Below are positions 10,894 through 58,504 of a DNA stretch of 61,055 nt, in pieces. The first letter of the stretch is position 1, and each line of letters opens with the position of its first letter. Under the pieces are notes generated by a model that worked only from the letters and a program-made list of their open reading frames with translations, was not told the origin of the DNA and ran no database searches. Source of the stretch: a virus (lineage: Duplodnaviria > Caudoviricetes); IMG/VR virus record IMGVR_UViG_3300030376_005008, positions 1-61,055 of that record; one strand, 5' to 3'. Both the position numbers and the translations under genes were made by a program.

Positions 10894-11750
10894 AAGAAGA
10901 AAAAGTTGGAAAGAAACCTAAGGGTATGGTCGTTGTTATCTCGGTTGGTAAACCGGGTGGGAAGAAACCTGAGCGAGAGGCTGACCCTGATACGAAGAAG
11001 AAAGCACAAACACGTGATAACGACGATGCTAAAGCGAGATTTCTTTATGATAGATTACCTGATGAAGCATTTGGGATAACTCCTCAAGTAGAAAATCCAG
11101 CGACAGGTTACAATCGAAGAATGATGGTAGATGACCTTCACACAGACATAGCAGGTGGCCTTGAGCCGGGAATACCCTTTGAAGACCCTCATATGGAACT
11201 TCGTCTTGACCCTGAGGAAAGAGAGTTAAATCGCCTCCAAGGTGTTCAAGGAGATTCTCCTAATATTAGACCGAGGCTCCATTCTTTGCATGGTTCAAAA
11301 CACTCACCGTTACAAGATATTACTAATCCTAATTACCTTGCTCAACCATTTTTGATTCCACAACATGAGTGGGTAGATGCCCCATTATCATTAGATATGT
11401 TGCTTAATCCAGCACCTCAAGGCACGGATGAAAATAAAATCAGATATCAAGATGGTGAACGGCAAGAACTTCGTCAAGTTGGTCGCATGCACAATCCTAA
11501 TGTAGATTATCGTAAGTGGATACAGAAACCAATGAAAACCGCAGTGCAACAAAGACGCGGTGAGGGTATAATCCAAAGAGGTGCTCCTATAGATTTGGCT
11601 TGGCGTTTGTTGAAAAATACTCCTATTGACCCCGCTGATGAAAGTAGAAGCGGTATGGGGCGCTGTAAATTCTGCGGAACTTATGCTGTTAATTTCAATC
11701 CATATGGTATTGGTGAATGTGCTGAGTGTGGAAGGCAAAATTACAGGTGA
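10890..11750 (+). CDS. Accessory protein with an internal PIDLAWRLLK tag followed by a Zn ribbon
   Basis: ORF track gives 10878..11750, and ATG 10890 overlaps the terL stop. Tag at 11586-11615, then CKFC...CAEC. Confidence 0.75.
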   Translation: MKEEKVGKKPKGMVVVISVGKPGGKKPEREADPDTKKKAQTRDNDDAKARFLYDRLPDEAFGITPQVENPATGYNRRMMVDDLHTDIAGGLEPGIPFEDPHMELRLDPEERELNRLQGVQGDSPNIRPRLHSLHGSKHSPLQDITNPNYLAQPFLIPQHEWVDAPLSLDMLLNPAPQGTDENKIRYQDGERQELRQVGRMHNPNVDYRKWIQKPMKTAVQQRRGEGIIQRGAPIDLAWRLLKNTPIDPADESRSGMGRCKFCGTYAVNFNPYGIGECAECGRQNYR

Positions 11751-22292: not shown

Positions 22293-23654
22293 GTGGTGAG
22301 ATGTGTGCTTCGACAACCGGAACGACTCAGTGGTCTTTCACTCCTCAAGGGGAGTTCAGACCTCGTGGTCGCAGGCTATGCCTCCGTTGAACTGGTCGAT
22401 AAGCAGGGAGATTTGATAACGCGCTCGGCTTTGAAGGATGCCTTCAAGAAGTTTATGACGGAACCGAAATATCGCAATGTTCAACTCGCACACTCAAATA
22501 TTCAAGTTGGAGAAGTAATACCAAATTATACAGACACAGAAGGGAGGATGTGGAAAAGCGAAGTTGATGACGCCGGAATGTTCGTCGTAGTCCAACTGAG
22601 AAATGACATTGAAAAGGCACGAGAAGTCGCAGCCGAAGTCAGAAAAGGAAATCTCACAGGATTCAGTATTGGAGGACAAGCATTCAAACGCGTAAACAAG
22701 AGCGATAATACTCACGGCTCATACCAAGAAATCAGCAAACTGGAACTACACGAAATCACAATCTGCGAAAAAGGAATAAACCCGGAAGCAACATTCAAGA
22801 TATTGAAAGAAGATAAAACAAAAACGGAGATGAAAAAAATGACCGATGATGTAATGGAACAAATGAACAGCGTTCTCGAACGCCTAGAAGGACGATTGGA
22901 CTCGATGGAGAAGGGTGAGTTGCCACCGGCACTCGCTGCTCATCAGAAGGAGTCCAAGGGCGAGTCGAAAGATGAGTCCACGGACGAGAAGGAAGAGAAG
23001 GAAGAGAAGGAAGACAAGGACGACAAGGAAAAGTCCGAGTTCTCTGATGTAATAACTGCTGAATACCTCAACTGGATGGAAGACACACTCAAGTCCGCTG
23101 GAGTAGACACTATGGGCGCTCGTGCGCACTTTGACGGTGTCGCTAAGGCTAACCTTGGCTCTACTCCTGAATCCGTTGACTTAGAATACGGTCAGACAAA
23201 GAACCGTGAGCAGGAAAATGGTTCACCTTCTACTAACGCTATATCCCGCGCAGGTCTTTCCGGTGGGAGCAAGAGGGTCCAAAAGGGAGAATTCCTAACC
23301 TCTGTTGACGCAGCATCTGCTGAACACGCATACGAGGTCTTCAAGGCCGCAAAGCAGGAAGAAGAACTTCGCAAGGCTCTTCATGGTAACTTCGAGGCTC
23401 GATACACCCATGAGCGCACTGCTGAAATCACTAAGGCTCAGGCTCAGAATTTCGACGCCCGTGCTCCTCTCAGTGAGGTCATGAAGGCTCTTGACGCTCT
23501 TAATGAGCGCATTGACAACATCGGTTCATCGGTTGAATCCTCAACCATTGCAAAGGCAGACAATCCCTCCATCGAGGTTCCTTCAACGGCTGACCTCGCT
23601 AACATGACTTGGGAAGAAGTTCACCGCCTCGCAGGAGGATTGTTCACTGAGTGA
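22293..23654 (+). CDS. Prohead (maturation) protease, HK97 family, fused to a scaffold domain
   Basis: VVAGYASVELVDKQGDLI, QLAHSN (His), GFSIGG (Ser), ELHEITICEKGINPEA. Acidic coiled-coil C-terminal half. The true start may be slightly downstream (GTG ~22305). Confidence 0.9.
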   Translation: MVRCVLRQPERLSGLSLLKGSSDLVVAGYASVELVDKQGDLITRSALKDAFKKFMTEPKYRNVQLAHSNIQVGEVIPNYTDTEGRMWKSEVDDAGMFVVVQLRNDIEKAREVAAEVRKGNLTGFSIGGQAFKRVNKSDNTHGSYQEISKLELHEITICEKGINPEATFKILKEDKTKTEMKKMTDDVMEQMNSVLERLEGRLDSMEKGELPPALAAHQKESKGESKDESTDEKEEKEEKEDKDDKEKSEFSDVITAEYLNWMEDTLKSAGVDTMGARAHFDGVAKANLGSTPESVDLEYGQTKNREQENGSPSTNAISRAGLSGGSKRVQKGEFLTSVDAASAEHAYEVFKAAKQEEELRKALHGNFEARYTHERTAEITKAQAQNFDARAPLSEVMKALDALNERIDNIGSSVESSTIAKADNPSIEVPSTADLANMTWEEVHRLAGGLFTE

Positions 23655-47400: not shown

Positions 47401-50400
47401 TGCTGGACCTAACGTAGAGGCACTGATTGTTGGAAGCACCAGCACTCCAAGTGTTTCTGACTATACTGCGGCTAACGGATTAGATGCTGCACCATTTGAT
47501 GACACCTTCTTCCTTCACGATGCTATTAGTGCCGACACCAGCCTTGAGAACGCTACACCTTGTAGGGCTGAAACTGGTGACCTGTTTTACGACCTTGACC
47601 ATAGTATAGGCACTGAGTTCTCAGCCACTGCGACTGGGCAACGCAATGTAGTCAATGACTTCTATGCTGAGCCTTCCAACCGTCCATCTGCATTCTTTGC
47701 TAACACAGATACTGGGAAGTCATTCTTCATTGGAGATGTCAATGGATATGACTTCTACAGGCGCTCTCCCGCGAAGAACTTCAACATCGAGCATGCTATT
47801 TGGAAACGCATGGATGGTGGTAGTTTGTCCTTACCTACAATCAATGCGCGTGGTCTTGGTGCTATTCCTTGGATTAACCGCGTTAAGAGTAATACAGAAT
47901 ACACCATGGGTGAGAAGTTGTATGGAAATGTGCGATTCTCGTTTGAGACAACTAACAGTGCTATGATGCCTATTCTACAGGCACAAGAACTGGCGCACCC
48001 TCAATTGGCAGCGCGACACCCACATGAGTTGCGCAACATCTTGGAGATTCCAAATGAGGAGTTGCAATTCGAGGCAATGGAAGTTATTGATGACACAGGG
48101 CAGACGCACAAGATTGAGGGTGGTTCGCCGTTTGGTGTCATCATTCGTGCATTCCAAACAGCAGGTGAACGGCTTGCCAGTGGACTACAACCAGCCAATG
48201 CGAACAGTGGTATTGAGCCTAACCTGAAAGTTCGCTTACCTAACCCTGATGCGATACCGGGTAACATCATTGTGCGCTCAGGATATGATAGGTTGCAAGC
48301 CTACCAGAATGAGAACATTGGTGATGGTGGTATGCTACATCCTGACCTTGGAGCATCTCATGTTGGACATCTCTTTGACAATGCAATCAAGGGACCGCGT
48401 TATGGTCCTACGATGGGTGAGGTTGGTTGGGAACATATCTCACAGGGTGAGTCATTCCCCGACAGCACACGAGATGGTTGGACGGGCGCTACACAAGATA
48501 ACCCAATACAATCGTCTTACGAACTACATGACAGGACACTATTCTTCCATGTCACTAAGATGGGTCACAGTCACACAGAGCGTTATCCTGTGACTTACAA
48601 CCATACCAGCGGTGTTGTCAATCAATCTTTGACAGTGAGTAGTTTTAGCGGCACTACGCTGACTGCTTCAGCAACTGTCACATCTGCTGTCTTCGATGCT
48701 GACTTTGCATCAAAGGAGCGGAGTGATAATCGCCGCTTCCTACGACTCTCTACAGCCACAGAAACGGTAGTCGTATCCTATACTGGTATTAGTGGAGCAA
48801 CTTTTACTGGTGTTATAGGAGATATTGACTTCGACCAATTCCTTCTTGATAATCCACCTGCGACATCCACAATCAATATCTCACCCTCATACTATGTGCC
48901 AGCAGGTAGCACTCGTTTCTTTGCTGCTCGTCGTCTTCGTGACCATGCTGAAGTTAGTGGTAACAGCCCCGACATGGCACATACACTCTACTTCGATGGT
49001 GACCAGAACACACTCCTGCATACACGATATAGCAAGCCGCAGTTGACACCTATGCCATACCCGCGTATGGGTCACCACTTTGTCAACGCGACCATGCCTA
49101 TGCTACCGGGTCATTGGGCGCATCCTGCGTATCAGGGTCTTTACTCGCGCTCTCGTAGTGAAAATAGAGTATCTCGCGCTGATGAAGATTACATTACACT
49201 GAAAGACAACATTGGGCTGGTTGATACATCTCTTAGTTCTACAATCACAGACAAGATGCATCCACTCAATCCACCACTTCGCGTCGGCTCTTTGACAGCG
49301 TTGCCATCAGGACCAAGCGATATTCACGGTGGCGCTTTCACGCTGATGTTTGAAACCAAGGTCAAGTATGACGGGTATGGAATCCTTGCATCTAAGGGAA
49401 CTGCTGGTGACATGAACAAGGCTGGTGGTCACTCTATCGTTCTTGAAGCAGCAGGAAATTACACCCTTGACAGGCACTTCCCTGACCCCGCTGAGGTTGG
49501 TGCATATCAGATTGTTATACAACCCAATGTGCGTAAACAACAGATTGCAGGTTTCCATGCAAATCATAGTTCAGCCACCTCTTTACCAAATGGCTCTGCT
49601 GTAGAGTTGACCAGTCAACAAGTCAACCTCGTAGTCGGTATCAAGTATGATAGCGAGAGGGGTTCTGCTATCGGTGGCGTGACGTTAGTTCTCGCCGAGG
49701 CTACACTCGCGGATGTGCGTGGTTGTGAGGTGTTCATCAACGAGGTCATCCTTGACCATGACCCCGACCATGGTGGACAGTTCACTAACATACCACCGTT
49801 GTTGACTTACAACGCTCTCGGTGTGCAGGGTAATCAGAGTCCACCGTTTACTCGCTCTACACATGCGTATCATGTGGGTATGTTCAGTGATTCGACACCG
49901 GGGAGAACATTACACATCCCATGGTGGTCTATCATGCATAAGGTTGCACCTGATGATAGCACTGCTACTGGTTTTAGACATCTATCCCTCTGTCGTATTG
50001 ATAATTACTACGAGTTCTGTCGTGCCAGTTTTGGTTCAATTGGATGTCAATTAACTCTTGCTGGTTATCCAAGTATCTACCCTGATATGTATTCCAAGGT
50101 CTTGGCTAATGCAAGCCTTTCTCCTGCTATTACTGTTCAATCTACATCTTTTACGAATGCTACTTGTGATTACAACAACGACCCGACAATCGCGCACGAC
50201 GACGATGATGGACAAATCAAAGCCGGTATGTTGGTGACTGGCACTGGTATACCAGCGGGTGCTTTCGTTGCATCTGTCACAAGCGACACTGAGTTTGAAT
50301 TGAGTGCATCAACCACTGGTGGTGCGGTAACAAATGGCACCTTGACGTTCTACGGTATCGTAGTAGATGATGCGACACATCTTCCTGAAGTTCCTTACTA

Positions 50401-53400
50401 TGGACAGAAGTTGCAATACACAAAGAGTGACGGAACCACTGCTGAGTTTGATTATACTGTTCGTTCAGGCACAACAAACAACGCTACTACGATGAACAAA
50501 ACCAATCTAATCGTTGTCCCAACGACCACAACTATGCCTCAAAACGGCGCTGTTTTACGACTCACAAGGGAGTATTCGACTGCTGCTGCATCTTCTCTAT
50601 TCAATGATGGTAAGACCAGTGTGTTGACACGGACACTACCACAGATGTTGAGTGGCACAAGGGATACAAACAGCCTCCATACCCCTGATGCTTTCCTATG
50701 TATGTGGCATCCTAATCTCGGTCGCCCACATACTTTCTACTCCGATGGGTCAAGAACTTGGGGTAACCTCACCAGTGACCGAGCGGTCAACAAGGCTGCA
50801 TACAATAGTATGCCTGAGCACTTTGAGACAGTTCACTATCATGGTGCAAACTATGCTGTCAGCCATGGTCCATTCAACCTTGATATGAATACACCAAAGC
50901 CACCGACTAAGATTTCTCTTGCTGTTGCAAGTGTTGGAGCCACGTTCTTAACATTCTCAGGTAACGCTGCATCAGAAATGTCAGCAGGAACTCTGTTGTT
51001 TACATCAGATGGTTTGTTCATTGGTAAATCATCAGGCGCTGTGCATTTCTCAGGAACTACTACAGCGGGTTTCACAACTAATTTATTCAACAATCCGGGT
51101 GTGGGTGACTTCATTTACAAAGATGCAGATGGCTCTGTGGAAACTGCCACGAACATTCATGCTATGTCAGGATACGAAGCACAAGGTAGCGGCACAGTCA
51201 TGCTCAGTCACTACTGGCCTTGTGGTAGTCGAGGTGGTCTTCTCAATAGCCGTCTTGACGGTTATGCTGCATGGTCTGCTGCATGGCATGTTCCTCGTGC
51301 ATATACTGCTGCTGGGGCTACATACTGGACGGATGCTGATGATGATGGCTCTTATGCAGTAAGTAGTGGAATTACAACTGCTGCTGCTTCAACAATTACA
51401 ACGCGCCGCTATCCTTTCGGCTATCGTTTCGGCCTTCGCCAACCATGGAACAGACCGCAATGGGGGCACTACGGAATGCGAGCCTATCAAGAGGCCGCTA
51501 CACACGCAAGTGCAAGTAACTTCACAGTGGGTTACAAGGCTGGTCCGTTAGTTGAATATGAGACGCAGAGTTGGAATTATGCTGGAGGGGCTGGTCTTGC
51601 AAACAGCACTCTACCCGTCACCTATGTCGGTATGATGGAACGGCAGACCAACGCAGCGGCTATGCTTGGTGTAGACAAACCTGAGTGGCAAGTGCGATAC
51701 AGTGACGGTCGTCGTATGACGAGAAGTTACGGATGTCCTGTAAGGACACTAAGGGACACCAATAGTGTAGCCACTGCTACTCTCACAGTCACAGACGGTG
51801 ATGCCGCGAGTGGTATGAGTGAGAAGCAAACTATCGCAATTCAATCAACAGATGGCACAACGAGGATGTATACCTTAGTAGATGATAACGCCACTACTGT
51901 CGCAACGGGGGATGTTCTTGCTGCATCTTCTGACACAGGGGCCAGCACTGCTGGTGCTGACCTTGTCGGTGCTATCGCTGTAGCCATCAATCTAACTGGC
52001 TCTGCGTCCACACAGAATGCATATTTGGTGCAACTTAAGGCAGCGATAGAGCATGCGAATGGTCACAATGGTAAGATTACTGTCTCAGCAGTTCCTACTG
52101 AGGCTAACGGTAACCAAGCCATCACGCTCACACAAGCAAAGGCAGGTCTTGCGGGGAATACTACAATCACTGAGAATGTGGATAATCTAACTGAGGCTGA
52201 TTTCAGTGGTGCTAAAGCAGTGCCTCGTGACTGGTGGGGTGATAACGAAGCGTTGGGTGTCACTACGATTGATGCTGCCGTGGGATACTATCTTGTGGAT
52301 TGGTGGGGTAACACGCGTGGCGAAGATGTGCGTCGCGCACCAGTGCGTGGCTTCGGTATTCGCCCAGCATGGGATGCCGGTGATGCATACGAGTATGACC
52401 GCACCAACAACAGAACACCACACGCGAGGATTTGGAACAACGGTAAGCCTATCTTCAATGTCAAGGGTGTGTTAGATAGTAGTGGTAATCTTCTATCTGC
52501 CACCACTGCATCTATCCCTCGTTTCGGTGGAGCAAGGAACAGCACAAACAACAATGATTCCAACTCTCTCGTTGATGTGTTCGCGCCTACTAATGCTATG
52601 CGTGTAGGTGACATGGGTGGCGGTCGTGGTGTGCGTTACCCAACACAGTTCAACGAAGACCTATTGGTTGAATTAAGCGATGTCTACGAAGCATCCGGCC
52701 TTGTTCTCTCTCATCATACTGCTGAACCAGCGTTTGGTCAAGGATATGTGCGCCCACGAAACGACGCGCTACAATCTGATGAACTAAGGCGTGGTATCAG
52801 TGCTCGACTTGAGATTGACGAAGATGGTCTTCTCAAGCCTGAAGCAGTAGTCAGTGACCGAGTTGAAACGGTTAGTGGAACAAGCGTGCATAAAGACGCA
52901 GTATCTCGAACCAGTCCACGTATTGGTCTTGACGCAGAGGCGCTTGAGGCAATTTCAAGTGGTGTTGACAGGGACTATGTTGCTATCAACACCGAGGCTC
53001 ACAGCCTACACGCTGACCGTGGTGTAGGTCAACGTGTCATTCTTCATGGTGGTATGCAAGCAGGGTCGCAGACACTTGGTGATTATGACCTCAGAAGCCT
53101 ATCATTCGCCGCACAACCACACGGTGGTGTAATGCGATTCAGTCATACTTCTAACGTCAAACCAATGGGCGGTTCATACATCATCGAATCACGCTCATTC
53201 GTCAACCCATTCGATGATACAGGTTGGGGTCGTAGTAGTTTAGCCGGTGGAGAGAAAACAAGCAATCCATATCAAACCACAACATACGACAGCACAAGCG
53301 CACAGACAAACTACAAGGATACCAGTGTCAAGTTCATGCTACGACCAGTGCGTCTGCTTGATAACCAACATATCGAAGTATTCCGACCTGAACACAATCT

Positions 53401-53842
53401 ACACAGCAGTAGTCCACAAGACGGTGGCACTTTCTTTTCAGCAACTGCCGGTGGTAAGTATGGTCTGTTTACCTATGAAACAACCAGCGCACGCGCCGCT
53501 GATGGGTTCTTCATAGGTGGTAGTAATAATCCAGCAAGCAACGCACCATATCAACCAGTATACCTAATGGAGACAAGTAGTGATACTGTGCCAGTTGCAA
53601 AGGGACCAAAACTCCCCGGAACTGAAGCCACGGGCTTTGATAAGACCACACTGAAGAGCACAGTTAGTCGCCTTATTATCACTGAAAATACACTTCAGCA
53701 CTTCCGTAGTGACGCGCCTCGTAATACGGGTAATGAGAAGGATTTCACAGTCAAACCGCGCTTTAGTCAATCATTACACAGCAAGGGGCATAAAGAAGAT
53801 GTTACCTACAATACATCAGACCACAGCGGTGATGCCTCTTGA
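35462..53842 (+). CDS. Giant (6126 aa) tail / adhesin-like virion protein with an N-terminal LamG/concanavalin-like domain
   Basis: ALLFDGVTDSV...TIEAWV...HVVGV...RLYVNG...IYLGG...FRGVIESLHIS is a LamG-like pattern. 18.4-kb uninterrupted ORF in the tail module with repeated beta modules. Confidence 0.8.
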   Translation: MPAILQSNHALLFDGVTDSVIVPQGSHRGVGNDDASGNRSAGDILGDSASGDRGPSVVGDLFRNTITIEAWVTPDCGGIIALKEDQFSLEMGTVDTPGPAKFSVRLETQGGVNTYQVSTASLTSNGYSGTVYPTPDFGGVSDSYNRFDSDKDDATTLNLNHRHLYHVVGVVEPGFIRLYVNGLLMAQEKIPFQTSIIQSNNHIYLGGKGGQFRGVIESLHISNNFENEMLSPSAPLVQDSTALLYRFEEPINPIQNEYQIASISSASNLSAINISTSDAAALASALTGTTVTTGTIVFTDSPYSTGNYSVHDNVTGAGASPATRSIPHVPYNLLINPGAINRETNKPNQSPPERVRLHNINVSTGAMLVSSIHLDFATSATGDGLRPVLHSRSAATGDDYFVVVAADLLIEGGSGRPYQPPHLASQIIDRTGQMILDESNFEQHGIAYSSRMATTANDSNNPFAVSWPTSLDESFQVGHSGRHIKNHVNGHHYLRMLPKASDEMLDQQIGTSDIINLMYDDAARGIENQVPINSEMEYYREVASMEVVSVQDSSMAFEIVDNGLTGATREIIAIGGSGTKTITAEATFNPYPFFLKGPVPVSAETLDETERTHHLRPSRESRVAVLSVPSLASHGFASFIEVHYNALDLTGVSMGKTKPMLMVEKTVPAGSVQTAGSSFTDATCDYNNDPTIAMDATTNVRPGMRVSGTGIPAGAFVVSVTNSTTFELSAATTGGSKTNQTLTFTPAYIADIVAADLVNPATDTTLFSPGGMITMRMEEGNLNTLQMPHAMIGDVSEGYESDDELDERYTPQYYTTMSDEPRKTPQIITASHTNSDIHNSTFNRLLIGGSKVTKENIADTGRRGVFTDIGSPSDGQFDIPITRSASPVHEMFDIIDNHIQASSDPFILYIQPSDRTRTMQLNHLRAALDRPGEANTAQVLYMMSKGVLRSVTESDADNGGRFTSLQIVGTSSLVNTASTSEIGSGSPDSHVVKEIDPHAPVVTVSLGGPGQGAFDTKPSFDPSPLSRLPYSTRRGFSVMGQSVRIEPGGTQFITVRALNNATPDLQSWGTYPFPKKGRLFLKNGASAEYSSKSGVSFMFTDGTAGDGKFTLADGQDLGTFKAWSIASGLVPEAKDIVGSTFNDATCDTDHSAGSGTSFGSNPKIIQMDSTTNVKVGMTVSGTGIAAGSIVTQIDSATLFRVNLDTTATNNNQTLTFTLVGENFSLGEILLGDGHFYIENSAADGTTVNDRMFQSMDTATHDYQLGTQFASTRALVEIPLFAGQFFESAAESIFPGPDNSLKMHVDATMTAHTYNPSPVGRRFPDKAPADRAAKAAYAYSMERAEFTKRTTILLRAKDETANYHLYVNNPSAFPAAVTSASAYHNVDNVVLYRQAFLSNGEWILYDNDPASDGYLQFKNEDWAHSENFLNSHAPGMALLIADGYESERVIPIFSDDETLSSDFEGRGEYYHDQSSVKTQGGNVDYGLRQYVSAVEFKAGPSTNPHSPRVKSKRAAGVIRGVTPLMNQGNFSGVFTVTLSEEDAALFPAIDVNLDSGTVDFDTGDMFYTVEITLPDGTAQKCIYWGDGKATFSHANLLTFGSATVTTSEIPKSTIILETIESRPSLPNFLNETHSSFILGQPLKLTKKSFDPLSDFTSVQLRNNVNIARSDRPGNSSSWTIAAVPNANQITLGAPSGVHAGTLQFDNASWQGQFSAKVGDKIYAEPTVASGASNVLAVGSVMYLGEVTAISEVVINGSATVIGLASLADITGITGSVEADLGAMIAAGTVYLRVGVEELLTEDSEAILNRSWLFPYAQGGLREGDTVWANMTYNNPHAVEGLFAKSRGVLNEAMVCNVFNGGEGALNNNPRDSLPLENFLIGNSCYETAVNYVQHVNKTVELNYTNLGLSQPPTVAYLDPYLSNAGHARVLLFDVAHDREFIAFQDLHMQVQSSPMHAQIGWSRDVIGADLTRTQANLGGNHSPYSTQIDVAAGFPSQNPFVRSSSRSRFMESAYAHNRANYISSKLINPVDSSSGSGATTVPKVLLNNLDYSWLYGKAHQHYVHTGFEQGITLGEIALGDSVLPRTKEAVVSPKFADKLHPYTRKGRSAEHNLTVALREHRSPNFKTSIFSTASTIRDPSTLFDTPDGTRVIPAFLALKGIRSSSLDLSNHTEANQTSGRRGIKHLKQWTDMEFTRRLSIDLGEVGVRDGVTDVEAAAREVVRLINQAAAPNARTHVRRPNNNYPAENVVLDTDISSTPSLTRIDAAVPHVNADFAATGSTFDPADWWNDSSSEKPDKGTHMGYVRAHLGRVVQDSRGREGYSIIIHSTIPGATGRNFCVWLDNSKGQTPYEPEFLIGHGGRFRTFWCQPDEVSGENMHPAPMPLNKHGRPFAPITTLKQYTIPDNAGQQVSPSDEFGEAGKSSDESADPVNRAISTFIGAGKTHNTVNTESLEAEGFVTSLVSGLRTGTGAIGRVNFGGLVASGIPGFAPDAGEWGFGRRGDKRFSAYYGGVNVTDNAITVASCTTTANSTQVTFTNVATTHAIVEGMAVSGTGIASGTKIASITNATTFQLDVVATASGTVTLTFTPQAPVKYTPHVPESEVLNQNIGNTDLYGFRFIDHRGIGHGIRFVYRQFGQKFALENTELPDSINEEVMVYFDDRDVGQGGFTIGRHMHGSGDATGRFPASDSNATHVPWRGNHWNGVPSHNAAYDCEVTYDASAKTLTIEPQTPYNACPHHDMLGYMGFPLKNGVVQVSDPFNHSTMKGSQGHMFSYTSRTRATGSGTHVFYGVTGANFVASHKTDGSGGVTTVTHLFGDGANGEIRALISSTANWTCLITDELMAAVTTAVINAPALMSPNINSEEGLTFDCTHMYAADGKTFGEWGVDPEAIRIRAYNPAREIQPLSQFFEASIHKDMGIPAAHVEYGEISSLIVNADGITLPASSRAASNGEIDAGLRNPCGYIPRTVMQVRTKGKGSNTNTQSPVLVDTKNNPIDVSTWKKGLIGENYTADSGDHILPNIDNPTVQITKTDIYGSSAPPTTLSISTGEMWYFTRPAGEESATLSSKAKIVSFGDISTLYYGEKPALVTGIHSAGGGVSQTQFSILELQIGTADTINWPTADSATNAAMQRYGGTSRYGITGKRSLGSVNSVPQVFFRGAKDSTDHSVPLFFGGGFSGVVLDINDGTDTDYSSFNTHPYANGPTGCAGIQHANEVLSSHAMIDCNAIMAFFPGTPLLNQHRGSITPPFSNQDNVLSPDIKRGEHTVAANHPNAAPYTAGVHIQVPSPFVLRFAHPTARYGDAAAGTENKTTYLIYGPGQPFPFTQEVADSSGSHNVNEPHPGRAIVAGGSFSKVPHGGAAQYLPNHIENDQQHYMPMTSAYQVARGRFHWRQTLNWEPAIGKPNTGILYQRPEQGRMYGDMVNPLGDTPSTSNIADFRVLHPTRHALFMGGGMVSNSDWTWHMDGGYHPGGSWMDNQVSMNPAHPNGNTLVAKVAASNCSVHPTAFRVAGTLATRVMYGSSASFQVHTPDADDVDMEYIVIDGTRCQNGEELATIIGAGINTFPGAGALKAMGGTFMPSMGNALRQDRYGWKEFTVSAYRNDGSGVSGSGVDTTAGVTNSDRRTSATCYLDVATTLAAGEQVPASGWLRTKTLYTVAVSGGNSTAPAYAPYHTRILYTSNGSDYFIRFYLGYNYLTGTKGFETAETWHDIETAAASTGDPNDRIKDLIDTNDINLPTVAANDDILVWSKAGTFSYNNENASTRDHMTNVHFSGLHDAIDRTRPTGVVGWAGERYSYLNSLLVGSSYAAGLGAWHTALGFSPYGNANSCMTTLSHLPHTAPMPNSGESIRPDESYTHFPGTGGDPPYDSLGSMTNEARVTSSYEAYVPGYADVSGFNSTPTYYSEENIPSELRHPQGVSARAFLVVAYESELPLVAKYDRDGITCTGDWLLAEQQGNKAKAGTTRWDERIHGQDRFTCTANAGPNVEALIVGSTSTPSVSDYTAANGLDAAPFDDTFFLHDAISADTSLENATPCRAETGDLFYDLDHSIGTEFSATATGQRNVVNDFYAEPSNRPSAFFANTDTGKSFFIGDVNGYDFYRRSPAKNFNIEHAIWKRMDGGSLSLPTINARGLGAIPWINRVKSNTEYTMGEKLYGNVRFSFETTNSAMMPILQAQELAHPQLAARHPHELRNILEIPNEELQFEAMEVIDDTGQTHKIEGGSPFGVIIRAFQTAGERLASGLQPANANSGIEPNLKVRLPNPDAIPGNIIVRSGYDRLQAYQNENIGDGGMLHPDLGASHVGHLFDNAIKGPRYGPTMGEVGWEHISQGESFPDSTRDGWTGATQDNPIQSSYELHDRTLFFHVTKMGHSHTERYPVTYNHTSGVVNQSLTVSSFSGTTLTASATVTSAVFDADFASKERSDNRRFLRLSTATETVVVSYTGISGATFTGVIGDIDFDQFLLDNPPATSTINISPSYYVPAGSTRFFAARRLRDHAEVSGNSPDMAHTLYFDGDQNTLLHTRYSKPQLTPMPYPRMGHHFVNATMPMLPGHWAHPAYQGLYSRSRSENRVSRADEDYITLKDNIGLVDTSLSSTITDKMHPLNPPLRVGSLTALPSGPSDIHGGAFTLMFETKVKYDGYGILASKGTAGDMNKAGGHSIVLEAAGNYTLDRHFPDPAEVGAYQIVIQPNVRKQQIAGFHANHSSATSLPNGSAVELTSQQVNLVVGIKYDSERGSAIGGVTLVLAEATLADVRGCEVFINEVILDHDPDHGGQFTNIPPLLTYNALGVQGNQSPPFTRSTHAYHVGMFSDSTPGRTLHIPWWSIMHKVAPDDSTATGFRHLSLCRIDNYYEFCRASFGSIGCQLTLAGYPSIYPDMYSKVLANASLSPAITVQSTSFTNATCDYNNDPTIAHDDDDGQIKAGMLVTGTGIPAGAFVASVTSDTEFELSASTTGGAVTNGTLTFYGIVVDDATHLPEVPYYGQKLQYTKSDGTTAEFDYTVRSGTTNNATTMNKTNLIVVPTTTTMPQNGAVLRLTREYSTAAASSLFNDGKTSVLTRTLPQMLSGTRDTNSLHTPDAFLCMWHPNLGRPHTFYSDGSRTWGNLTSDRAVNKAAYNSMPEHFETVHYHGANYAVSHGPFNLDMNTPKPPTKISLAVASVGATFLTFSGNAASEMSAGTLLFTSDGLFIGKSSGAVHFSGTTTAGFTTNLFNNPGVGDFIYKDADGSVETATNIHAMSGYEAQGSGTVMLSHYWPCGSRGGLLNSRLDGYAAWSAAWHVPRAYTAAGATYWTDADDDGSYAVSSGITTAAASTITTRRYPFGYRFGLRQPWNRPQWGHYGMRAYQEAATHASASNFTVGYKAGPLVEYETQSWNYAGGAGLANSTLPVTYVGMMERQTNAAAMLGVDKPEWQVRYSDGRRMTRSYGCPVRTLRDTNSVATATLTVTDGDAASGMSEKQTIAIQSTDGTTRMYTLVDDNATTVATGDVLAASSDTGASTAGADLVGAIAVAINLTGSASTQNAYLVQLKAAIEHANGHNGKITVSAVPTEANGNQAITLTQAKAGLAGNTTITENVDNLTEADFSGAKAVPRDWWGDNEALGVTTIDAAVGYYLVDWWGNTRGEDVRRAPVRGFGIRPAWDAGDAYEYDRTNNRTPHARIWNNGKPIFNVKGVLDSSGNLLSATTASIPRFGGARNSTNNNDSNSLVDVFAPTNAMRVGDMGGGRGVRYPTQFNEDLLVELSDVYEASGLVLSHHTAEPAFGQGYVRPRNDALQSDELRRGISARLEIDEDGLLKPEAVVSDRVETVSGTSVHKDAVSRTSPRIGLDAEALEAISSGVDRDYVAINTEAHSLHADRGVGQRVILHGGMQAGSQTLGDYDLRSLSFAAQPHGGVMRFSHTSNVKPMGGSYIIESRSFVNPFDDTGWGRSSLAGGEKTSNPYQTTTYDSTSAQTNYKDTSVKFMLRPVRLLDNQHIEVFRPEHNLHSSSPQDGGTFFSATAGGKYGLFTYETTSARAADGFFIGGSNNPASNAPYQPVYLMETSSDTVPVAKGPKLPGTEATGFDKTTLKSTVSRLIITENTLQHFRSDAPRNTGNEKDFTVKPRFSQSLHSKGHKEDVTYNTSDHSGDAS

Positions 53843-53955
53843 CCAATCTTGAATTGTTCACAATTTCACTGATAGGTGGGTTCTTCATCGGTATTTGCAT
53901 AGGTCTGCATATTGCTATGAGTCGTGAAGACGCTGCACGTTGGAGTGATGTCTGA
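53839..53955 (+). CDS. 38-aa single-TM peptide (not in ORF track)
   Basis: TTG start overlaps the giant gene stop (TTGA) after a GGTGA RBS. Sequence LTNLELFTISLIGGFFIGICIGLHIAMSREDAARWSDV. Its stop overlaps the next ATG (TGATG). Confidence 0.6.
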   Translation: MTNLELFTISLIGGFFIGICIGLHIAMSREDAARWSDV

Positions 53956-56543
53956 TGCTTCCAATGGACCTCGCTATGCGGTTGCTGAAAGAACAAATAG
54001 ATTATGAGAATCAAATGGAACTTGCCCCTCACGAGCAACTATGGAACGATGAGGCTGATGAACACCTTAAAACCAAAACAAATGAATTATTTGATTATGC
54101 GATAGCGCAGGGGATTGACCCCGGTGATTTATTGGACGCATGGCACGATAGAGCCTCTATGGTTGAAGGGCTTGATTATGGTGAGCCGGGAAGTGAATTA
54201 GGATTTAGAGCGCACGCTGTTGACCCTTCACAATGGAAGAAGTTAGCCAGCGAACCAATGGACCTCGCTATGCGGTTGCTCAAACGCCAAACAGAATTAG
54301 GAGAGCACCGGGGCTTTGAAGATGAAGCATTTTCATCTCATGGTCCGGTAACTCATTATCATGCAACAAAAGCACCGGAAGATGCTGAATCCATAAAGGG
54401 ACATGGTATTCGACCTGCGGGAAATTATGCTACGCACAGTGGTGGTAAAACAAAGTCAATATATTCTTATTTAGTAGATAATATGGATTTAGAAAACACA
54501 GAGCCTTTGATTTGGGCTACAGGTGAAGGACAGGAGTTACCTATTGAATATGCAGGGACTTATAATGATAAATGGGTAGGAGAGCCACAATTTGATGAAA
54601 GTGGGATGTTAATTCCCGGAACAGGCCCATCTCGTGAAAGAGAGTTTCAAGAAGGGGGGATGTTTGGTATCAGGGGTGGTGATATAGATTGGGAAAGGTC
54701 GCAATCTCCCATTTATAGACAAGGTGAGGAGTTCTATATTCACAATCAGCCTATTCCAAGAGAAAAAATTATCCCTATGCCTGTCCAAACAGGCGAATCA
54801 ATGGACCTCGCTTGGCGGTTGCTCAAGATGTCTGAGGCTGAAATGAGGGAAGCGGGTTATCTTGATTATTACAGTCCTGAAAATATTGCGAATTATTATC
54901 AAAAAAGAAGAATGCGATATGGTAGCCGATTACCAAGTAATCTGCGTAATGAGATTATATCAGAACAATTAGCCCGGGGAAATAGGATGTTAGCGGCAGG
55001 TATACCTGAAGAACTAATGTATGCACATCACGATTATCCACCACTTTTAGAAGCAAGAATGAATGTTCCCGAAAGAAAATTACATTTATTACCATATGAA
55101 GCAGACGAAAGAAGTCAAATTGCGGACTTAGAAGATGTAGCAAGTAAAATAGATATGAATCCACGCGCTGTTTACAACAATCAAAGATTGTTTAGGCAAA
55201 TGATACCTGAAAACTTCGCGATGGAAGAGCCTGAAATAGAGCAAGAGCAAATTATTGAAGAATCACCAATCCCGGGTATGGTTTTCATTAACGGTGTATT
55301 AAGCGTTGACCCCCGAAATCAAAAAAGCGAACCAATGGACCTCGCTTGGCAGTTGCTCAAACGCCAACCGGGACAACCGGAACTTGGTGAGTTTCATCCC
55401 GATTTACCTTCTTCGCAGGGGCCGATAGTAGCGTATCATGGTAAAGGAGTAAACGAAGATAGGCGAAGGAAGTTTCAAACTGAAGGTATTCTACCAGTTG
55501 ATACACCAGAGGCTCAAATAGGCAGTGGTAGATATGTGCAACAACAACAAGGTAATGATGCGTATTGGAATCGTGATATTCCAGCAAATGTTTCTGTAAC
55601 TGGTGATTTGAGCACAGCACAGGAGTTTGCTACCCACGGAACCCGCGTAGATGGAAATCCATTGCAAGGTCGTCCTGATTCAGAGGAGGTGGTTTATGGA
55701 GTAAGAGCAGGAGCATTAGCGAACCAACTTCCTATGGACGACCCGCGTCGTTTATCTGCCCAACACTTACCGGAGGTTGGAAGAGAAGGAGGAGGAGCAA
55801 AAACTCACCGTTTCATAGCGGGAGGTATAGCACCAGAGGCGCTGCATGCATTTTCTGGACGAGATGCGCAAAAACATGCAGGTGGACATTGGGCGCGAAA
55901 CTTAGGACAATTCCAAACACATGGTCCAGACAAAGTTTACTGGGATTCATTGGATGAATATGAATATGAAAATCCCCGACCACGGGAGTTTATTGACGAC
56001 TACTTTAGGGAGGGAAACCCCGCATACAAAGAGTGGTCTGATGCGCAAGGGCGAGCAGCATTTTCAGGAAGAGAACAATGGATAGATGACCAAGTTTCTA
56101 ACTGGCAAGCACAGCAAGCACAGCAAGCACAATTACAACAACAACTGCAACTACGACAACAGCAGCAGCAGTCAATGATGAACCCTGACCCGTCTGGACA
56201 AACGACTCTGAATACGTTTCAAACAGGCGAACCAATGGACCTCTCTTGGCGGTTGCTCAAGGAGAAGAAGCCTGACCCACGCCTGAAAGCGGCAGGAGTG
56301 AGTGGATATAACAAACCGAAGCGCACGCCAAACCATCCAAAGAAATCACATGTGGTTGTAGCAAGGTCAGGTGGTAAGGTCAAAACAATTCGATTCGGTG
56401 AACAGGGCGCAGACACTGTTACAGAAGATAATCCAAAAGGTAAGAGAGCAAAGAAGCGAGCGTCGTTCAAAGCCCGACATCAGAAAAATATCAAACGAGG
56501 ACCAATGAGTGCGGCATATTGGGCGGATAAGGTGAAGTGGTAA
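53955..56543 (+). CDS. Modular polyprotein: five MDL(A/S)(W/M)(R/Q)LLK-tagged cassettes, including two ADP-ribosyltransferase-like domains and a C-terminal basic viral domain
   Basis: Five tag copies. ART-like YHAT..SIKGHGIRP and YHGK..FQTEGILP..SVTGDLSTAQEFA. C-terminal KTIRFGEQGA...ASFKARH...SAAYWADKVKW. Confidence 0.85.
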   Translation: MLPMDLAMRLLKEQIDYENQMELAPHEQLWNDEADEHLKTKTNELFDYAIAQGIDPGDLLDAWHDRASMVEGLDYGEPGSELGFRAHAVDPSQWKKLASEPMDLAMRLLKRQTELGEHRGFEDEAFSSHGPVTHYHATKAPEDAESIKGHGIRPAGNYATHSGGKTKSIYSYLVDNMDLENTEPLIWATGEGQELPIEYAGTYNDKWVGEPQFDESGMLIPGTGPSREREFQEGGMFGIRGGDIDWERSQSPIYRQGEEFYIHNQPIPREKIIPMPVQTGESMDLAWRLLKMSEAEMREAGYLDYYSPENIANYYQKRRMRYGSRLPSNLRNEIISEQLARGNRMLAAGIPEELMYAHHDYPPLLEARMNVPERKLHLLPYEADERSQIADLEDVASKIDMNPRAVYNNQRLFRQMIPENFAMEEPEIEQEQIIEESPIPGMVFINGVLSVDPRNQKSEPMDLAWQLLKRQPGQPELGEFHPDLPSSQGPIVAYHGKGVNEDRRRKFQTEGILPVDTPEAQIGSGRYVQQQQGNDAYWNRDIPANVSVTGDLSTAQEFATHGTRVDGNPLQGRPDSEEVVYGVRAGALANQLPMDDPRRLSAQHLPEVGREGGGAKTHRFIAGGIAPEALHAFSGRDAQKHAGGHWARNLGQFQTHGPDKVYWDSLDEYEYENPRPREFIDDYFREGNPAYKEWSDAQGRAAFSGREQWIDDQVSNWQAQQAQQAQLQQQLQLRQQQQQSMMNPDPSGQTTLNTFQTGEPMDLSWRLLKEKKPDPRLKAAGVSGYNKPKRTPNHPKKSHVVVARSGGKVKTIRFGEQGADTVTEDNPKGKRAKKRASFKARHQKNIKRGPMSAAYWADKVKW

Positions 56544-56580
56544 TATGAAACCAATGGACCTCGCTTGGCGGTTGCTCAAG
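53961..56580 (+). repeat. Six dispersed ~30-bp direct repeats, consensus CCAATGGACCTCGCTTGGCGGTTGCTCAA(G/A)
   Basis: Copies start at about 53961, 54255, 54798, 55332, 56232 and 56551, with at most 3 mismatches each to the consensus and variable 0.3-0.9 kb spacing. Confidence 0.95.
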
Positions 56581-56730
56581 GTTGATGATGAAATACCGGA
56601 TTTTAGTGATGAGCCTGTTGACCAATGCGAAATGTGCAACAAATATCTCCATGATTCAGATTACCATGTCCTAAATGACCACAATTTTTGTAGCGATTGC
56701 TATAATCAATTGGCTGAGGAGGGAATGTGA
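56545..56730 (+). CDS. Small Zn-finger protein with an N-terminal PMDLAWRLLK tag
   Basis: MKPMDLAWRLLK then CEMC...FCSDC. AGGTGA RBS. Confidence 0.8.
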   Translation: MKPMDLAWRLLKVDDEIPDFSDEPVDQCEMCNKYLHDSDYHVLNDHNFCSDCYNQLAEEGM

Positions 56731-58157
56731 TGCCTTACCTCGCCAAGCAACGATTGACTGGTGATAGCAATGTCGTCATGAAACATGTGCGTAAGCCTAA
56801 GTTCGTGGACAACGCTGTGCATGTTGGTGAGATTACAATGCAAGGTAATACCCAGCAGAAGGTAACAGTCAGAAAACGCAATTCTACTAATTTCGCTATC
56901 GCATCAGAGCGTGCATATGAGTTGACTGAGGTCGAAGGAGGTATGCGAATCATGCAACCTCAAGTCGCTGGACATGAGAATACATCTTCGCCGATTTATA
57001 TAGGGTCATTATTGGATGATACTGCTGCTTTAAATAGGCCACCGCTGATTTTCTCTGCCGACAACCCTTCTTTGCGCCTTGTCCCCGGCTCAGTTTTGTC
57101 GTCTGGTAAGGGAGTAGTCCTTGCTTTACGCAATCTACAGGGTGGCACTGCTGCTGACCTTGGTTTCCAATCCACACGTGGGCACCTTGGTCAGACGTTA
57201 GATGTTGGATTACGAACAACAGACATGGCTCTACGTCTTGGTCGTGTCATTGAAGAATCACTTGCTTCAGTCAATATCGCTCTACCTCGCACACCAACGA
57301 ATGCTACCAAAGATAGACGTAAGCATAGCACTGAGTTCGTCGCATTCGACTTCTATGATGTCAACGTCATGGAGGCTCTACGCTTCCTTGGTAGACACGA
57401 TAACCGCATCATCTACTTCGATGCATATGGAAACATGCTTTACATTCCATTCAACTTTGGTGGAGCAGGTAGATTACTTGATTCTAAGACCCGCACAGGG
57501 CCAAGTGCTACCAATCCAATATCAAACACACCTAACCGCATCGCTGTGCAAGGATTCCCAAAGGCACTCAATCAATCAGCCTTTGCTCTGGTTAATGACG
57601 GTGAGAGACAGAGCGGTCGTATAGGAGACATACAAGCCGCACCCGAGATTATTGAAGACATCACGGTCAACAGTGATAGGGAAGCCCGTCGTGTTGCATT
57701 GAATATTCTCAAGGCTAACAATGCCGAGGCTGGAAGTAAAAGCAGTAAGGGTCATCTTGAAGCATGGGACTTACGACCCGGTAAGATTGTTGAGTATGAC
57801 GGCGTGAGGCGCATCATCACAGAATCGAGACATTCGCTTAGAACAGGCGAAAGTGACTTTGTTTTCTTGATGGTAGATACAGGCGTCGAGGGAGTGCTAC
57901 AGGGTATCAAGGCTGGTATATCTTTGAGTGCAAAGGCAAGGGCAGAGATTGAACAAGTGAGTGAATTGAATATGTCCTTGTTTGGTGACATCAGAATCAA
58001 CACTATCCCAATCATTCAAGTGAAGCAGCACGGTGCATCAGGCACAGGGTTCATCATTGGGAAGGCGATGGCGAGGGGAACAATCGGAGGAACCAGTTCG
58101 CAAGAGGTCGTCGGCGGCAGTAAGTCCATACCAGTAGTATTCAGAGGTGATATGTGA
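56727..58157 (+). CDS. Putative tail-tip / baseplate hub-like protein
   Basis: NVMEALRFLGRHDNRIIYFDAYGNMLY, NRIAVQG, IEDITVNSDREARRVALNIL and WDLRPGKIV resemble hub (gp27/Tal-like) proteins. Confidence 0.55.
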   Translation: MMPYLAKQRLTGDSNVVMKHVRKPKFVDNAVHVGEITMQGNTQQKVTVRKRNSTNFAIASERAYELTEVEGGMRIMQPQVAGHENTSSPIYIGSLLDDTAALNRPPLIFSADNPSLRLVPGSVLSSGKGVVLALRNLQGGTAADLGFQSTRGHLGQTLDVGLRTTDMALRLGRVIEESLASVNIALPRTPTNATKDRRKHSTEFVAFDFYDVNVMEALRFLGRHDNRIIYFDAYGNMLYIPFNFGGAGRLLDSKTRTGPSATNPISNTPNRIAVQGFPKALNQSAFALVNDGERQSGRIGDIQAAPEIIEDITVNSDREARRVALNILKANNAEAGSKSSKGHLEAWDLRPGKIVEYDGVRRIITESRHSLRTGESDFVFLMVDTGVEGVLQGIKAGISLSAKARAEIEQVSELNMSLFGDIRINTIPIIQVKQHGASGTGFIIGKAMARGTIGGTSSQEVVGGSKSIPVVFRGDM

Positions 58158-58504
58158 TGCCAGTAAGTGATTACATCAAACGCACCCTTCTGGACACTCT
58201 TGTGTCAAACATCAATGAGATGGTGATTGGATTTGATGGAACACCTTCAACATCATCTGATGGAGCAGCAGGACGCCCAGCAATCACTCTTAACCCAACA
58301 GTGAGAATAGTAGATGATTCGACTATTCTTGTTGAGGCTATTCTACCTGCAAATCAGTCATTTAATGAGACGCTGAAAGAGGTCTACATACAATTCAAGG
58401 GGACTGATTCCACATTTATCCCCGTCGCAAGACACACAATCGCACCCGTCCTCAAGACATCATCAAATGAGATGCGTGTGCAAGTTCTAATCGAGGTGAA
58501 GTAA
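58154..58504 (+). CDS. Small tail/baseplate structural protein
   Basis: 116 aa with a MVIGFDGT...LKEVYI...PVLKTSSNEMRVQVLIEV pattern. GAGGTGA RBS. Confidence 0.55.
   Translation: MMPVSDYIKRTLLDTLVSNINEMVIGFDGTPSTSSDGAAGRPAITLNPTVRIVDDSTILVEAILPANQSFNETLKEVYIQFKGTDSTFIPVARHTIAPVLKTSSNEMRVQVLIEVK

Follow-up and report, generated by a model that had tools for sequence, protein, structure and literature searches.

Tailed phages are known to carry ADP-ribosyltransferases (ARTs) into their hosts. The ART Alt of phage T4 is packaged and injected (PMC5512222; PMC9503650), ~44% of phage ARTs were placed in packaging contexts in a 2022 survey (PMC9503650), and the polyvalent proteins described by Iyer et al. 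(2017; PMC5512222) combine unrelated effector domains, including up to 12 ART copies, in one polypeptide at a virion-gene locus, for which co-delivery with the DNA and sometimes proteolytic processing were predicted. A virion-associated ART inside a multi-effector protein is already known; next to nothing is known of host takeover by viruses that infect marine group II archaea, which are abundant and uncultured, and KptA is absent or rare in archaeal viruses by the account of the 2022 survey (PMC9503650). Here we report on a polyprotein gene in the tailed-virus record IMGVR_UViG_3300030376_005008, all 61,055 bases of which were analyzed (hereafter the window; completeness estimate 57%), and on two of its five modules, cassettes 2 and 4, which a sequence-only reading had taken for paralogous, injected ARTs. 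We propose that cassettes 2 and 4 are divergent members of an unnamed viral family of small ART-fold domains with a ~100-amino-acid (aa) core, whose nearest known relative is the NAD+ lobe of Tpt1/KptA, and that they are virion-delivered NAD+ enzymes; taken as a whole, we hold this proposal to be evenly balanced. The family, its Tpt1-lobe-only design, the architecture of tag, leader and ART, and the probable archaeal host are new. A full-text literature search combining Poseidoniales, virus and ADP-ribosyltransferase returned no paper, although supplementary tables of magrovirus and Poseidoniales-virus papers may list such open reading frames (ORFs) as hypothetical.

The polyprotein ORF (53955..56543, + strand) translates into a single chain of 862 aa with no internal stop and comprises five cassettes (53955-54251, 54252-54794, 54795-55328, 55329-56228, and 56229-56543), each headed by a short peptide tag. 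As translated, cassette 2 reads KRQTELGEH...SSHGPVTHYHATKAPEDAESIKGHGIRP...LIWAT...EYAG...MFGI...EEFYIHNQPIPREKI and cassette 4 reads KRQPGQPELGEF...SSQGPIVAYHGK...FQTEGILP...VSVTGDLSTAQEFA...VVYGV...HRFIAGGIAPEAL. Both strings had been quoted in the sequence-only reading and lie in this uninterrupted frame, and the span it had given to the ART-like domains (54285-55860) begins just past the cassette 2 tag, takes in cassette 3, which is unrelated, and ends where cassette 4 ceases to be ART-like. Like a polyvalent protein, the chain brings together several effector-type modules (two ARTs, one phrog_7595 module, and two of unknown type) in a late module, and its relatives add GNAT, DUF5872, and Zn-ribbon domains. 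It differs in that a common 10-aa helix tag, with a [G/S]E-P junction, stands before every module, that separate tagged genes also occur, that the ART is Tpt1-like and not His-Tyr-Asp, that no MuF domain or zincin peptidase is fused, and that the host is probably archaeal.

A second comparison is offered by T4 Alt and by gene 115 of the halovirus HVTV-1 (Zeta-toxin/ADPrib_exo_Tox), which resemble the present case as ARTs that tailed viruses encode with their late or structural genes. In HVTV-1, whose ART is listed in PMC8651126, an Alt/VIP2-type ART ends a 1313-aa head-module protein. However, these are large enzymes of the Arg-Ser-Glu (Alt/VIP2) clade, whereas cassettes 2 and 4 are minimal, lie in the tail-end module, and have a His in strand 1, a position at which Arg was found in 2 of 70 family domains.

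Fold of cassettes 2 and 4

AlphaFold2 models were built for cassette 2 (m4991b363a112; predicted local distance difference test, pLDDT, 83.7; predicted template modeling score, pTM, 0.71) and cassette 4 (m2b3e719122e7; pLDDT 77.6; pTM 0.73). Both have a split beta-sheet core with the order strand 1 - helix - strand 2 - helix, superposable on solved ARTs. The core of cassette 2 (54342..54779, +) is interrupted by two inserted beta-hairpins, and that of cassette 4 (55419..55853, +) carries a long loop and is followed by a C-terminal extension with a Gln-rich end (55854..56228, +; alignment A3, columns 440-590). This extension is conserved in the cassette 4 subfamily (P0024, P0026, P0028, P0030-32, P0041, P0043, P0044, and P0049) and possibly serves in target recognition.

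The models were compared with 48,161 representative PDB chains by VIA-align, a search independent of Foldseek. For cassette 2, 22 chains scored Z>=5, and only ART-type proteins appeared among the matches listed (the best 50), led by KptA (Z 7.5; root-mean-square deviation, rmsd, 3.0 Å over 84 aa; chain residues 92-180) and followed by TreX (7.3), diphtheria toxin (6.6), mouse Tpt1 (6.5), and exotoxin A (6.5). These matches covered Tpt1/KptA, diphtheria/exotoxin-A/cholix-type and cholera/LT/pertussis-type toxins, PARPs, DarT, Arr, and Rhs ART toxins; six of them (AvrPphF ORF2, VPA0770, CC0527, protein 6b, RES toxin, and Tne2) we take to be ART-like from general knowledge and not from their titles. 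Cassette 4 aligned to residues 91-182 of Aeropyrum Tpt1 (1wfx) with Z 8.3, rmsd 2.6 Å, and 22% identity over 87 aa, and in the wide search it reached a best Z of 7.8, with 11 chains at Z>=5 and, again among the best 50 listed, ART-type chains only. Foldseek placed KptA/Tpt1 chains in all of the first rows for cassette 4 (best E 1.2e-3; probability 0.95-1.00, E to 1.7e-2), with only ART toxins, DarT, and PARP below them. In BFVD, the second match of cassette 4 was a 121-aa "putative RNA 2'-phosphotransferase" of phage PaBG (E 2.6e-4), with PARP, DarT, and ART-PolyVal entries in lower rows; small stand-alone lobes of this kind are thus present in other phages too. We give weight to the fold evidence because two highly different sequences converge on one superfamily, with nothing else listed. 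Judged from the models, an ART fold is very probable for both cassettes, and the relatives named by the sequence-only reading (Tpt1/KptA, PARPs, and DarT) are among the nearest. Tpt1/KptA leads, with diphtheria/exotoxin-A-type toxins, cholera/pertussis-type toxins, PARPs, and DarT behind it.

One further row of the wide cassette 4 search, PDB 9k3a_B (Z 3.8), is a chain of the cyanophage A4 pre-ejectosome that stands amid the ART-fold rows. In the paper on cyanophage A4, ADP-ribosylation does not come up, and gp28 is left with one alpha+beta domain unassigned. As a weak lead, on which we do not rely, an ejection protein may hold an ART-like domain.

Relatedness of the two cassettes and link to Tpt1/KptA

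Direct similarity between cassettes 2 and 4 is confined to the N-terminal end and ceases past strand 1 and helix 1. BLASTP gave 45% identity over 60 aa (E 3e-8) with the tags and 44% over 32 aa (E 9e-4) without them, and the two subfamily profiles, with tag and leader removed, aligned over 28 columns (E 6e-4, probability 28%). Many family proteins, however, are short (140-190 aa) and consist of tag, leader, and a ~95-aa domain; we refer to these as the minimal subfamily. When compared with it by hhalign, also with tag and leader removed, the cassette 2 subfamily aligned with a probability of 97.3% (E 2e-11) and the cassette 4 subfamily with a probability of 98.5% (E 1.5e-15), each over 98 columns. 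Since both subfamilies match the minimal subfamily end to end, the two cassettes belong to a single family, as paralogues that have diverged, in agreement with the sequence-only reading.

With cassette 2 as the query, HMMER was run exhaustively over 1.84 billion representatives and recovered 20 proteins at E<=0.001. Three of them (P0010, P0020, and P0021), long repetitive proteins with short internal matches, were excluded as unrelated, and a follow-on profile search added 39 further proteins. The family was seen only in marine viral metagenomes, as shuffled cassettes: cassette 4 is joined to a Zn-finger cassette in P0024, cassette 3 to a third ART type in P0040, and cassette 2 to other cargo in P0004-P0007. 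No functional name was attached to the family proteins looked up, no model for the family was found in Pfam, PHROG, or NCBIfam, and searches of Pfam, PHROGs, NCBIfam, and PADLOC at E<=1 returned nothing for cassettes 2 and 4 beyond noise (phrog_6170, E 0.12; phrog_9547, E 0.72). IMG/VR yielded 1 locus from a single-protein query and 11 from a degenerate leader pattern; a back-translation search of IMG/VR found none for cassette 2 and, for cassette 4, 3 loci matching tag and leader only.

To relate the family to KptA, a profile of 86 sequences gathered with E. coli KptA was used. The minimal subfamily aligned to it with a probability of 93.0% (E 3.5e-7) over 84 columns corresponding to KptA residues 100-184, i.e., the whole NAD+ lobe. 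In this alignment Y-H-G-T falls on Y-H-G-T, G-L on G-L, the strand-2 aromatic on the second His of KptA, and family strand 5 on the hydrophobic V-W-L. The 86-sequence profile superseded hhalign comparisons of alignments A1 and A3 with the lone E. coli KptA, which had covered 22-26 columns at Y-H-G-T with probabilities of 5.5% and 1.7%. ART-type Pfam matches, all sub-threshold, were obtained for PARP in 8 of 44 relatives (E 0.0047-0.077), for PTS_2-RNA in 2, and for ART-PolyVal in 1 (E 0.018). Over the ART-like domains the sub-threshold matches were to ART families only, the other named families belonging to other cassettes, and family members touched only the RNA 2'-phosphotransferase models of NCBIfam (E 0.02-0.15). 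Protein-language-model look-alikes with a family name were mostly ART families as well; those of cassette 4 (NarE, Scabin, and pertussis clusters, 0.89-0.91) are used as a lead only.

The NAD+ lobe of Tpt1/KptA (PF01885) is the best fold match of both cassettes (Z 7.5 for cassette 2; Z 7.8-8.3 for cassette 4), and it shares with the family the Y-H-G-T of strand 1, the G-L after helix 1, a helix A-x-x-[Y/V]-[A/G], and the hydrophobic strand 5. In contrast to Tpt1/KptA, the cassettes have no N-terminal winged-helix RNA lobe, so that three of the four essential Arg-His-Arg-Arg residues are absent. The family has Tyr, Phe, or Ser in strand 2 where KptA has His, and it has its own invariant Arg in a G[V/I]R motif, an N-terminal leader, and a tag.

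A number of observations weigh against the assignment to the ARTs. The cassette 2 and cassette 4 subfamilies alone reached probabilities of only 6% and 0.2% against the KptA profile; since neither gave a significant match, the link to KptA is transitive. The ART thresholds of Pfam and NCBIfam were reached by neither the cassettes nor their relatives: PTS_2-RNA (PF01885) gave 13.4 and 15.4 bits in relatives against a cut-off of 26 and no match in the cassettes, and was not found in the window's own record, and the best relative for PARP (E 0.0047) reached 16.9 bits where 26.7 are required. The PDB, searched by sequence and by profile, yielded no relevant protein: one noise match for cassette 2 (Hcp1, E 0.36), none for cassette 4, and 0 for the A1 profile. 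Foldseek returned nothing from the PDB at E<=0.001 for cassette 2, whose lowest-E rows were acyl-CoA dehydrogenases (E 0.22, probability <=0.15) and whose highest probabilities went to Arr-2 (0.54), Tpt1 (0.47), and exotoxin A (0.33). Finally, both models were built on shallow alignments (27 and 25 rows), and the Z scores are middling (<=8.3), with a warning from the tool that best Z values of 7-8 are common without a clear match.

Taken at face value, the Z range, the non-significant Foldseek result for cassette 2, and the unmet thresholds of the curated families would suit a chance resemblance, in which short motifs and a common alpha/beta arrangement mimic an ART in domains of another fold or function. 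Such an origin is hard to reconcile with two divergent cassettes that were modeled separately and each found only ART-type chains among the matches listed from 48,161, with an alignment of the family to the whole KptA NAD+ lobe that places the H-G-T motifs upon each other, or with sub-threshold matches over the ART-like domains that all belong to ART families, as do most of the named language-model look-alikes. We regard chance resemblance as very improbable.

Active-site residues

Conservation was counted over 79 distinct domain instances, with residue equivalences taken from alignments and model secondary structure, not from superposed coordinates. The strand-1 His is present in 68 instances and replaced by Arg in 2, the other 9 being gaps in fragments without this position; P0043, P0044, and P0049 have F-R-G there. 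The Gly after helix 1 was found in 70/70 and the Arg of G[V/I]R in 71/72. The family consensus at strand 1 is Y-H-G-T (H in 68, G in 61 or A in 9, T in 56), for which cassette 2 has H-A-T and cassette 4 a partial H-G-K. In Tpt1 and diphtheria toxin, the His and Thr of H-G-T hold the adenosine 2'-OH of NAD+ (PMC6333775). NAD+ binding, with ADP-ribose transfer or NAD+ hydrolysis, is predicted for the cassettes from a single point, the conserved strand-1 His. The strand-2 position is variable (Y 26, F 20, S 15, W 3, T 3, and H 2), being Trp in cassette 2 and Ser in cassette 4.

The key positions are therefore His37/Trp88/Glu160 in cassette 2 and His37/Ser89/Thr159-His160 in cassette 4 (all + strand). 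In cassette 2 these are H37 in Y-H-A-T (54360-54362), W88 as the strand-2 aromatic (54513-54515), and E160 before strand 5 (54729-54731), together with G52 and R141 of G-I-R (54672-54674). In cassette 4, H37 lies in Y-H-G-K (55437-55439) and S89 at the strand-2 aromatic position (55593-55595), within V-S-V-T; there is no E-x-E, T159/H160 (55803-55808) occupy the place of cassette 2 E160/F161, and G53, R126 of G-V-R (55704-55706), and E149, part of a semi-conserved P-E-x-G within the disordered loop that leads to strand 5, complete the set. The sequence-only reading had named a candidate catalytic Glu in cassette 2 and other residues at that place in cassette 4. The residues stand as it gave them (E159-E160 before strand 5 in cassette 2; T159-H160-R161-F162 in cassette 4), but a catalytic Glu is not a feature of the family. 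No conserved acidic residue was found at strand 5 over the 79 domain instances, E160 is kept only in ~90%-identical relatives of cassette 2, and the three divergent members of the subfamily, P0008, P0009, and P0014, have Q, K, or P instead.

Diphtheria toxin, exotoxin A, and PARP share with the cassettes the fold (Z 6.5-6.6 for cassette 2) and an H-G-T-type motif in strand 1; cassette 2 also has, by alignment, an aromatic residue in strand 2 and a Glu before strand 5. The family departs from this His-Tyr-Glu clade in that its Glu is not conserved and its core is far smaller. Tpt1, on the other hand, dispenses with a catalytic Glu, since the role of nucleophile falls to a phosphate, which is held mostly by residues of the N-terminal lobe (PMC6333775). 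Only ~30 residues, i.e., tag and leader, precede strand 1 in the cassettes. Since a Tpt1-type N-terminal lobe is absent, the acceptor would have to be bound by a surface that one of the insertions, the extension, the leader, or a partner provides. Since the family has no conserved Glu and an invariant Arg, Tpt1-like chemistry on a phosphate or other activated nucleophile, or substrate-assisted chemistry, is likelier than classical Glu-driven protein modification. By its conserved residues, the family looks like a Glu-less Tpt1 type and not like a classical His-Tyr-Glu enzyme.

With His, Trp, and Glu in place, cassette 2 is more likely to be an active enzyme than cassette 4. As far as residues allow a judgment, we lean toward cassette 2 being an active NAD-using enzyme, whereas for cassette 4 the balance tips slightly the other way: it may be inactive because of its strand-2 Ser and the Lys that takes the place of the H-G-T Thr. 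Such considerations lead to an alternative in which the ART fold is real but non-catalytic, and the cassettes are virion-borne binding or structural modules for NAD+, ADP-ribose-derived molecules, or a host factor. The lack of any conserved acidic residue at strand 5 is what would be expected of such modules, and cassette 4 is off at all classical positions but the His. Moreover, the leader, a linear stretch modeled at low confidence, is better conserved than the catalytic core, which is without explanation if the cassettes are enzymes and suggests protein-protein contact. However, very divergent sequences keep the His, the Gly, and the Arg of G[V/I]R almost without exception, as an active site would lead one to expect, Tpt1 is likewise independent of a Glu (PMC6333775), and viruses seldom keep several paralogous dead enzymes. 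A purely non-catalytic role therefore seems unlikely to us.

Tag, leader, processing, and delivery

When the window is translated in all six frames, the tag motif, [G/S]E-PMDLAWRLLK, appears seven times; 200 block shuffles contained it 0.045 times on average and once at most. Five copies lie in the 862-aa ORF, one opens the next ORF, and one is inside ORF 10878-11747. At the DNA level, six copies of ~41 nt (53961-54001, 54255-54295, 54798-54838, 55332-55372, 56232-56272, and 56551-56591, all +) are 63-95% identical, near codon for codon and including ~12 nt upstream; the seventh, at 11589, encodes the same peptide in other codons. This pattern suggests selection on the peptide, with the repeat possibly acting as a recombination joint that swaps cassettes. 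The tag of cassette 2 (PMDLAMRLLK; 54255..54284, +), preceded by S-E at the junction, is modeled as a helix (residues 2-13), and that of cassette 4 (PMDLAWQLLK; 55332..55361, +) likewise follows S-E.

The two ART cassettes are further set apart by a leader, RQ(T/P)ELGE(H/F)...SS.GP, which comes after the tag and runs straight into Y-H-(A/G). Both cassettes share it, as the sequence-only reading had noted, and it is absent after the tags of cassettes 1, 3, and 5. The cassette 2 leader (RQTELGEHRGFEDEAFSSH; 54285..54341, +) has a pLDDT of 54-66, and its K11, Q13, T14, L16, G17, and E18 are >=90% conserved (alignment A2); the cassette 4 leader (RQPGQPELGEFHPDLPSSQ) lies at 55362..55418 (+).

A GGAG-type ribosome-binding motif precedes the start of the ORF (53955) and none of the internal tags; internal translation starts at the ATGs of the tags were rejected on this ground. 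Since the internal tags have no GGAG/GAGGTG motif, the cassettes are made as a single chain. In stand-alone homologues the first residue lies 2-3 residues ahead of the tag, at the place of the internal junctions, and among 57 distinct internal tag contexts G/S occupies position -3 in 46, E position -2 in 43, and P position -1 in 52. The junction pattern fits cleavage into separately tagged proteins, and a prohead serine protease of family S78 with a charged C-terminal region fused to it (22293..23654, +; Pfam Peptidase_S78, E 1.4e-9) is a candidate for the processing enzyme, a role that we infer. In the syntenic relative L006, the place between the counterparts of ORFs 56727-58157 and 58154-58504 is taken by a tagged ART that stands alone, and a thermosome gene is close by.

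Internal proteins of T4 carry N-terminal capsid-targeting sequences. The tags resemble these as short N-terminal peptides on otherwise unrelated small proteins, beside a likely protease site, but their sequence is unrelated, they are repeated inside a polyprotein, and their targeting role is putative. In the mechanism that we favor, the 862-aa protein would be made late, along with the tail-gene products, by a magrovirus-like tailed virus that infects marine archaea, and cuts at the [G/S]E-P junctions would release separate proteins, each opening with an amphipathic PMDLAWRLLK helix. The tagged proteins would travel in the virion and, upon infection, be set free in the host, where the ART domains would bind NAD+ via the strand-1 His of the H-G-T-type motif and pass ADP-ribose to a host or nucleic-acid acceptor. 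Cleavage, presence in the virion, and injection are suggested by gene context and by analogy, which counts against this mechanism, and the same two grounds suggest a role in host takeover or anti-defense, the role that the sequence-only reading had assumed. By such analogy, delivery of the cassettes by the virion could go either way.

Alternatively, the cassettes could be active NAD+ enzymes that are not packaged and that work late in the infected cell on phosphate ends of nucleic acids, as in Tpt1-like repair or capping, or on viral proteins, with the tag serving in processing or localization. Tpt1/KptA is nearest both by fold and by profile, phage KptA homologues have been tied to RNA repair (PMC9503650), and packaging is a prediction here. 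On the other hand, the RNA lobe of Tpt1, which holds three of its four essential residues, is absent, the fold matches spanning chain residues 91-182 only; the genes lie in the tail module and not among replication or RNA-repair genes; and small cargo of unrelated kinds, such as Zn fingers and the phrog_7595 cassette, carries this tag as well. We consider an intracellular role of this kind rather doubtful.

A further elaboration of virion delivery can be offered as conjecture, and we think it improbable. Tag and leader would form a plug-and-play cargo system in viruses of marine archaea, in which stand-alone Tpt1-type lobes, lacking the catalytic Glu but having an invariant Arg, on injection, ADP-ribosylate phosphate ends of nucleic acids, thereby capping the incoming linear viral DNA against host nucleases or blocking host RNA/DNA ends; the RQTELGE leader would act as a regulator or supply the missing substrate-binding or acidic element, and the near-identical tag DNA would be the recombination joint through which viruses exchange cassettes.

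The cassettes add to the known virion-carried ARTs an unannotated family restricted to marine viral metagenomes and a minimal Tpt1-like NAD+ lobe as a free-standing module, and they offer a clear tag-leader-ART architecture for experiments, in two divergent copies within one protein. Should the domains prove active, they would rank with the first candidate enzymes for host modification in magrovirus-like viruses, and ART function in the absence of a catalytic Glu could be studied in a compact system.

Genomic context and probable host

The window encodes on its + strand a large terminase, a portal, the S78 prohead protease, and an SU10-type major capsid protein (Pfam). On this one strand the late module has the order terminase, portal, S78 protease, capsid protein, a 6126-aa ORF, the polyprotein, and tail-like ORFs. 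Past the 6126-aa ORF (35462-53842) come the 862-aa ORF (53955-56543), a 61-aa ORF, and then three more ORFs. A thermosome-type chaperonin (Cpn60_TCP1, E 1.8e-74) is encoded on the opposite strand.

Relatives of the capsid protein were found in just 9 of 50,697 phage records, and 9/9 were tailed archaeal viruses, namely HVTV-1, HCTV-1, HCTV-5, and similar viruses at 33-34% identity and one Methanofastidiosa virus. HVTV-1 (34% identity) is the closest cultured relative by this protein. Group A magroviruses of marine group II archaea are described as having thermosome genes and halovirus-like capsids (Philosof et al., PMC5434244). Since the thermosome gene and the halovirus-like capsid protein of the window fit this description, the host is probably archaeal and the virus probably magrovirus-like, as far as gene content tells. 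A search of genome contigs with the thermosome gene found no relative and hence no host link by that route. GGAGG/GAGGTG motifs stand 6-10 nt 5' of 11 checked start codons (e.g., 13634, 23690, 27037, 53955, and 56727); the virus uses Shine-Dalgarno-type initiation, as presumably does its host.

Other cassettes and neighboring genes

Cassettes 1 (53955-54251) and 3 (54795-55328) belong to no recognizable family. Cassette 5 (56229-56543) matches phrog_7595 (E 1e-33). A tblastn search of the polyprotein against the 50,697 phage records matched 43 of them, and the 20 matches listed all lay within residues 751-862, i.e., cassette 5. In these 43 records, from roseophages, cyanophages, and a pelagic phage set, untagged homologues of cassette 5 are encoded by small genes of their own, and the homologue of a Celeribacter phage is likewise untagged. 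The separate 61-aa ORF (56545..56730, +) has the same N-terminal tag and a Zn-finger-like C-terminal half, and its counterpart in P0024 is fused behind a cassette 4 homologue. Other cargo behind the same tag includes a GNAT acetyltransferase in P0005 (E 5e-4), DUF5872 in P0019, and Zn ribbons. An HD-type (SpoT-like) domain was recognized, by eye only, in related polyproteins (the IMG/VR loci L016 and L017, P0005, and P0019), and two ART cassettes sometimes stand in tandem in related polyproteins, with a tag shrunk to LLK or VLK.

Right after the large terminase, a 290-aa ORF (10878-11747, +) has a tag in its interior (GAPIDLAWRLLK, ~residue 238) and, behind it, a short tail that is rich in Cys and resembles a Zn ribbon; given this tag, the head module, too, encodes tagged cargo. 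The 6126-aa ORF (35462-53842, +) has a sole Pfam match, Laminin_G_3 at residues 134-223, and several copies of a ~55-aa motif were seen by eye (FTDATCDYNNDPTI...GTGIPAGAFV...); it may be a giant tail fiber or adhesin. Finally, a 1842-aa ORF between the portal and the prohead protease (16734-22262, +) had no match in Pfam. It occupies the slot that is filled in HVTV-1 by a MuF-like protein and the 1313-aa Zeta_toxin/ADPrib_exo_Tox protein, and it may be a second effector protein, encoded in the head module.

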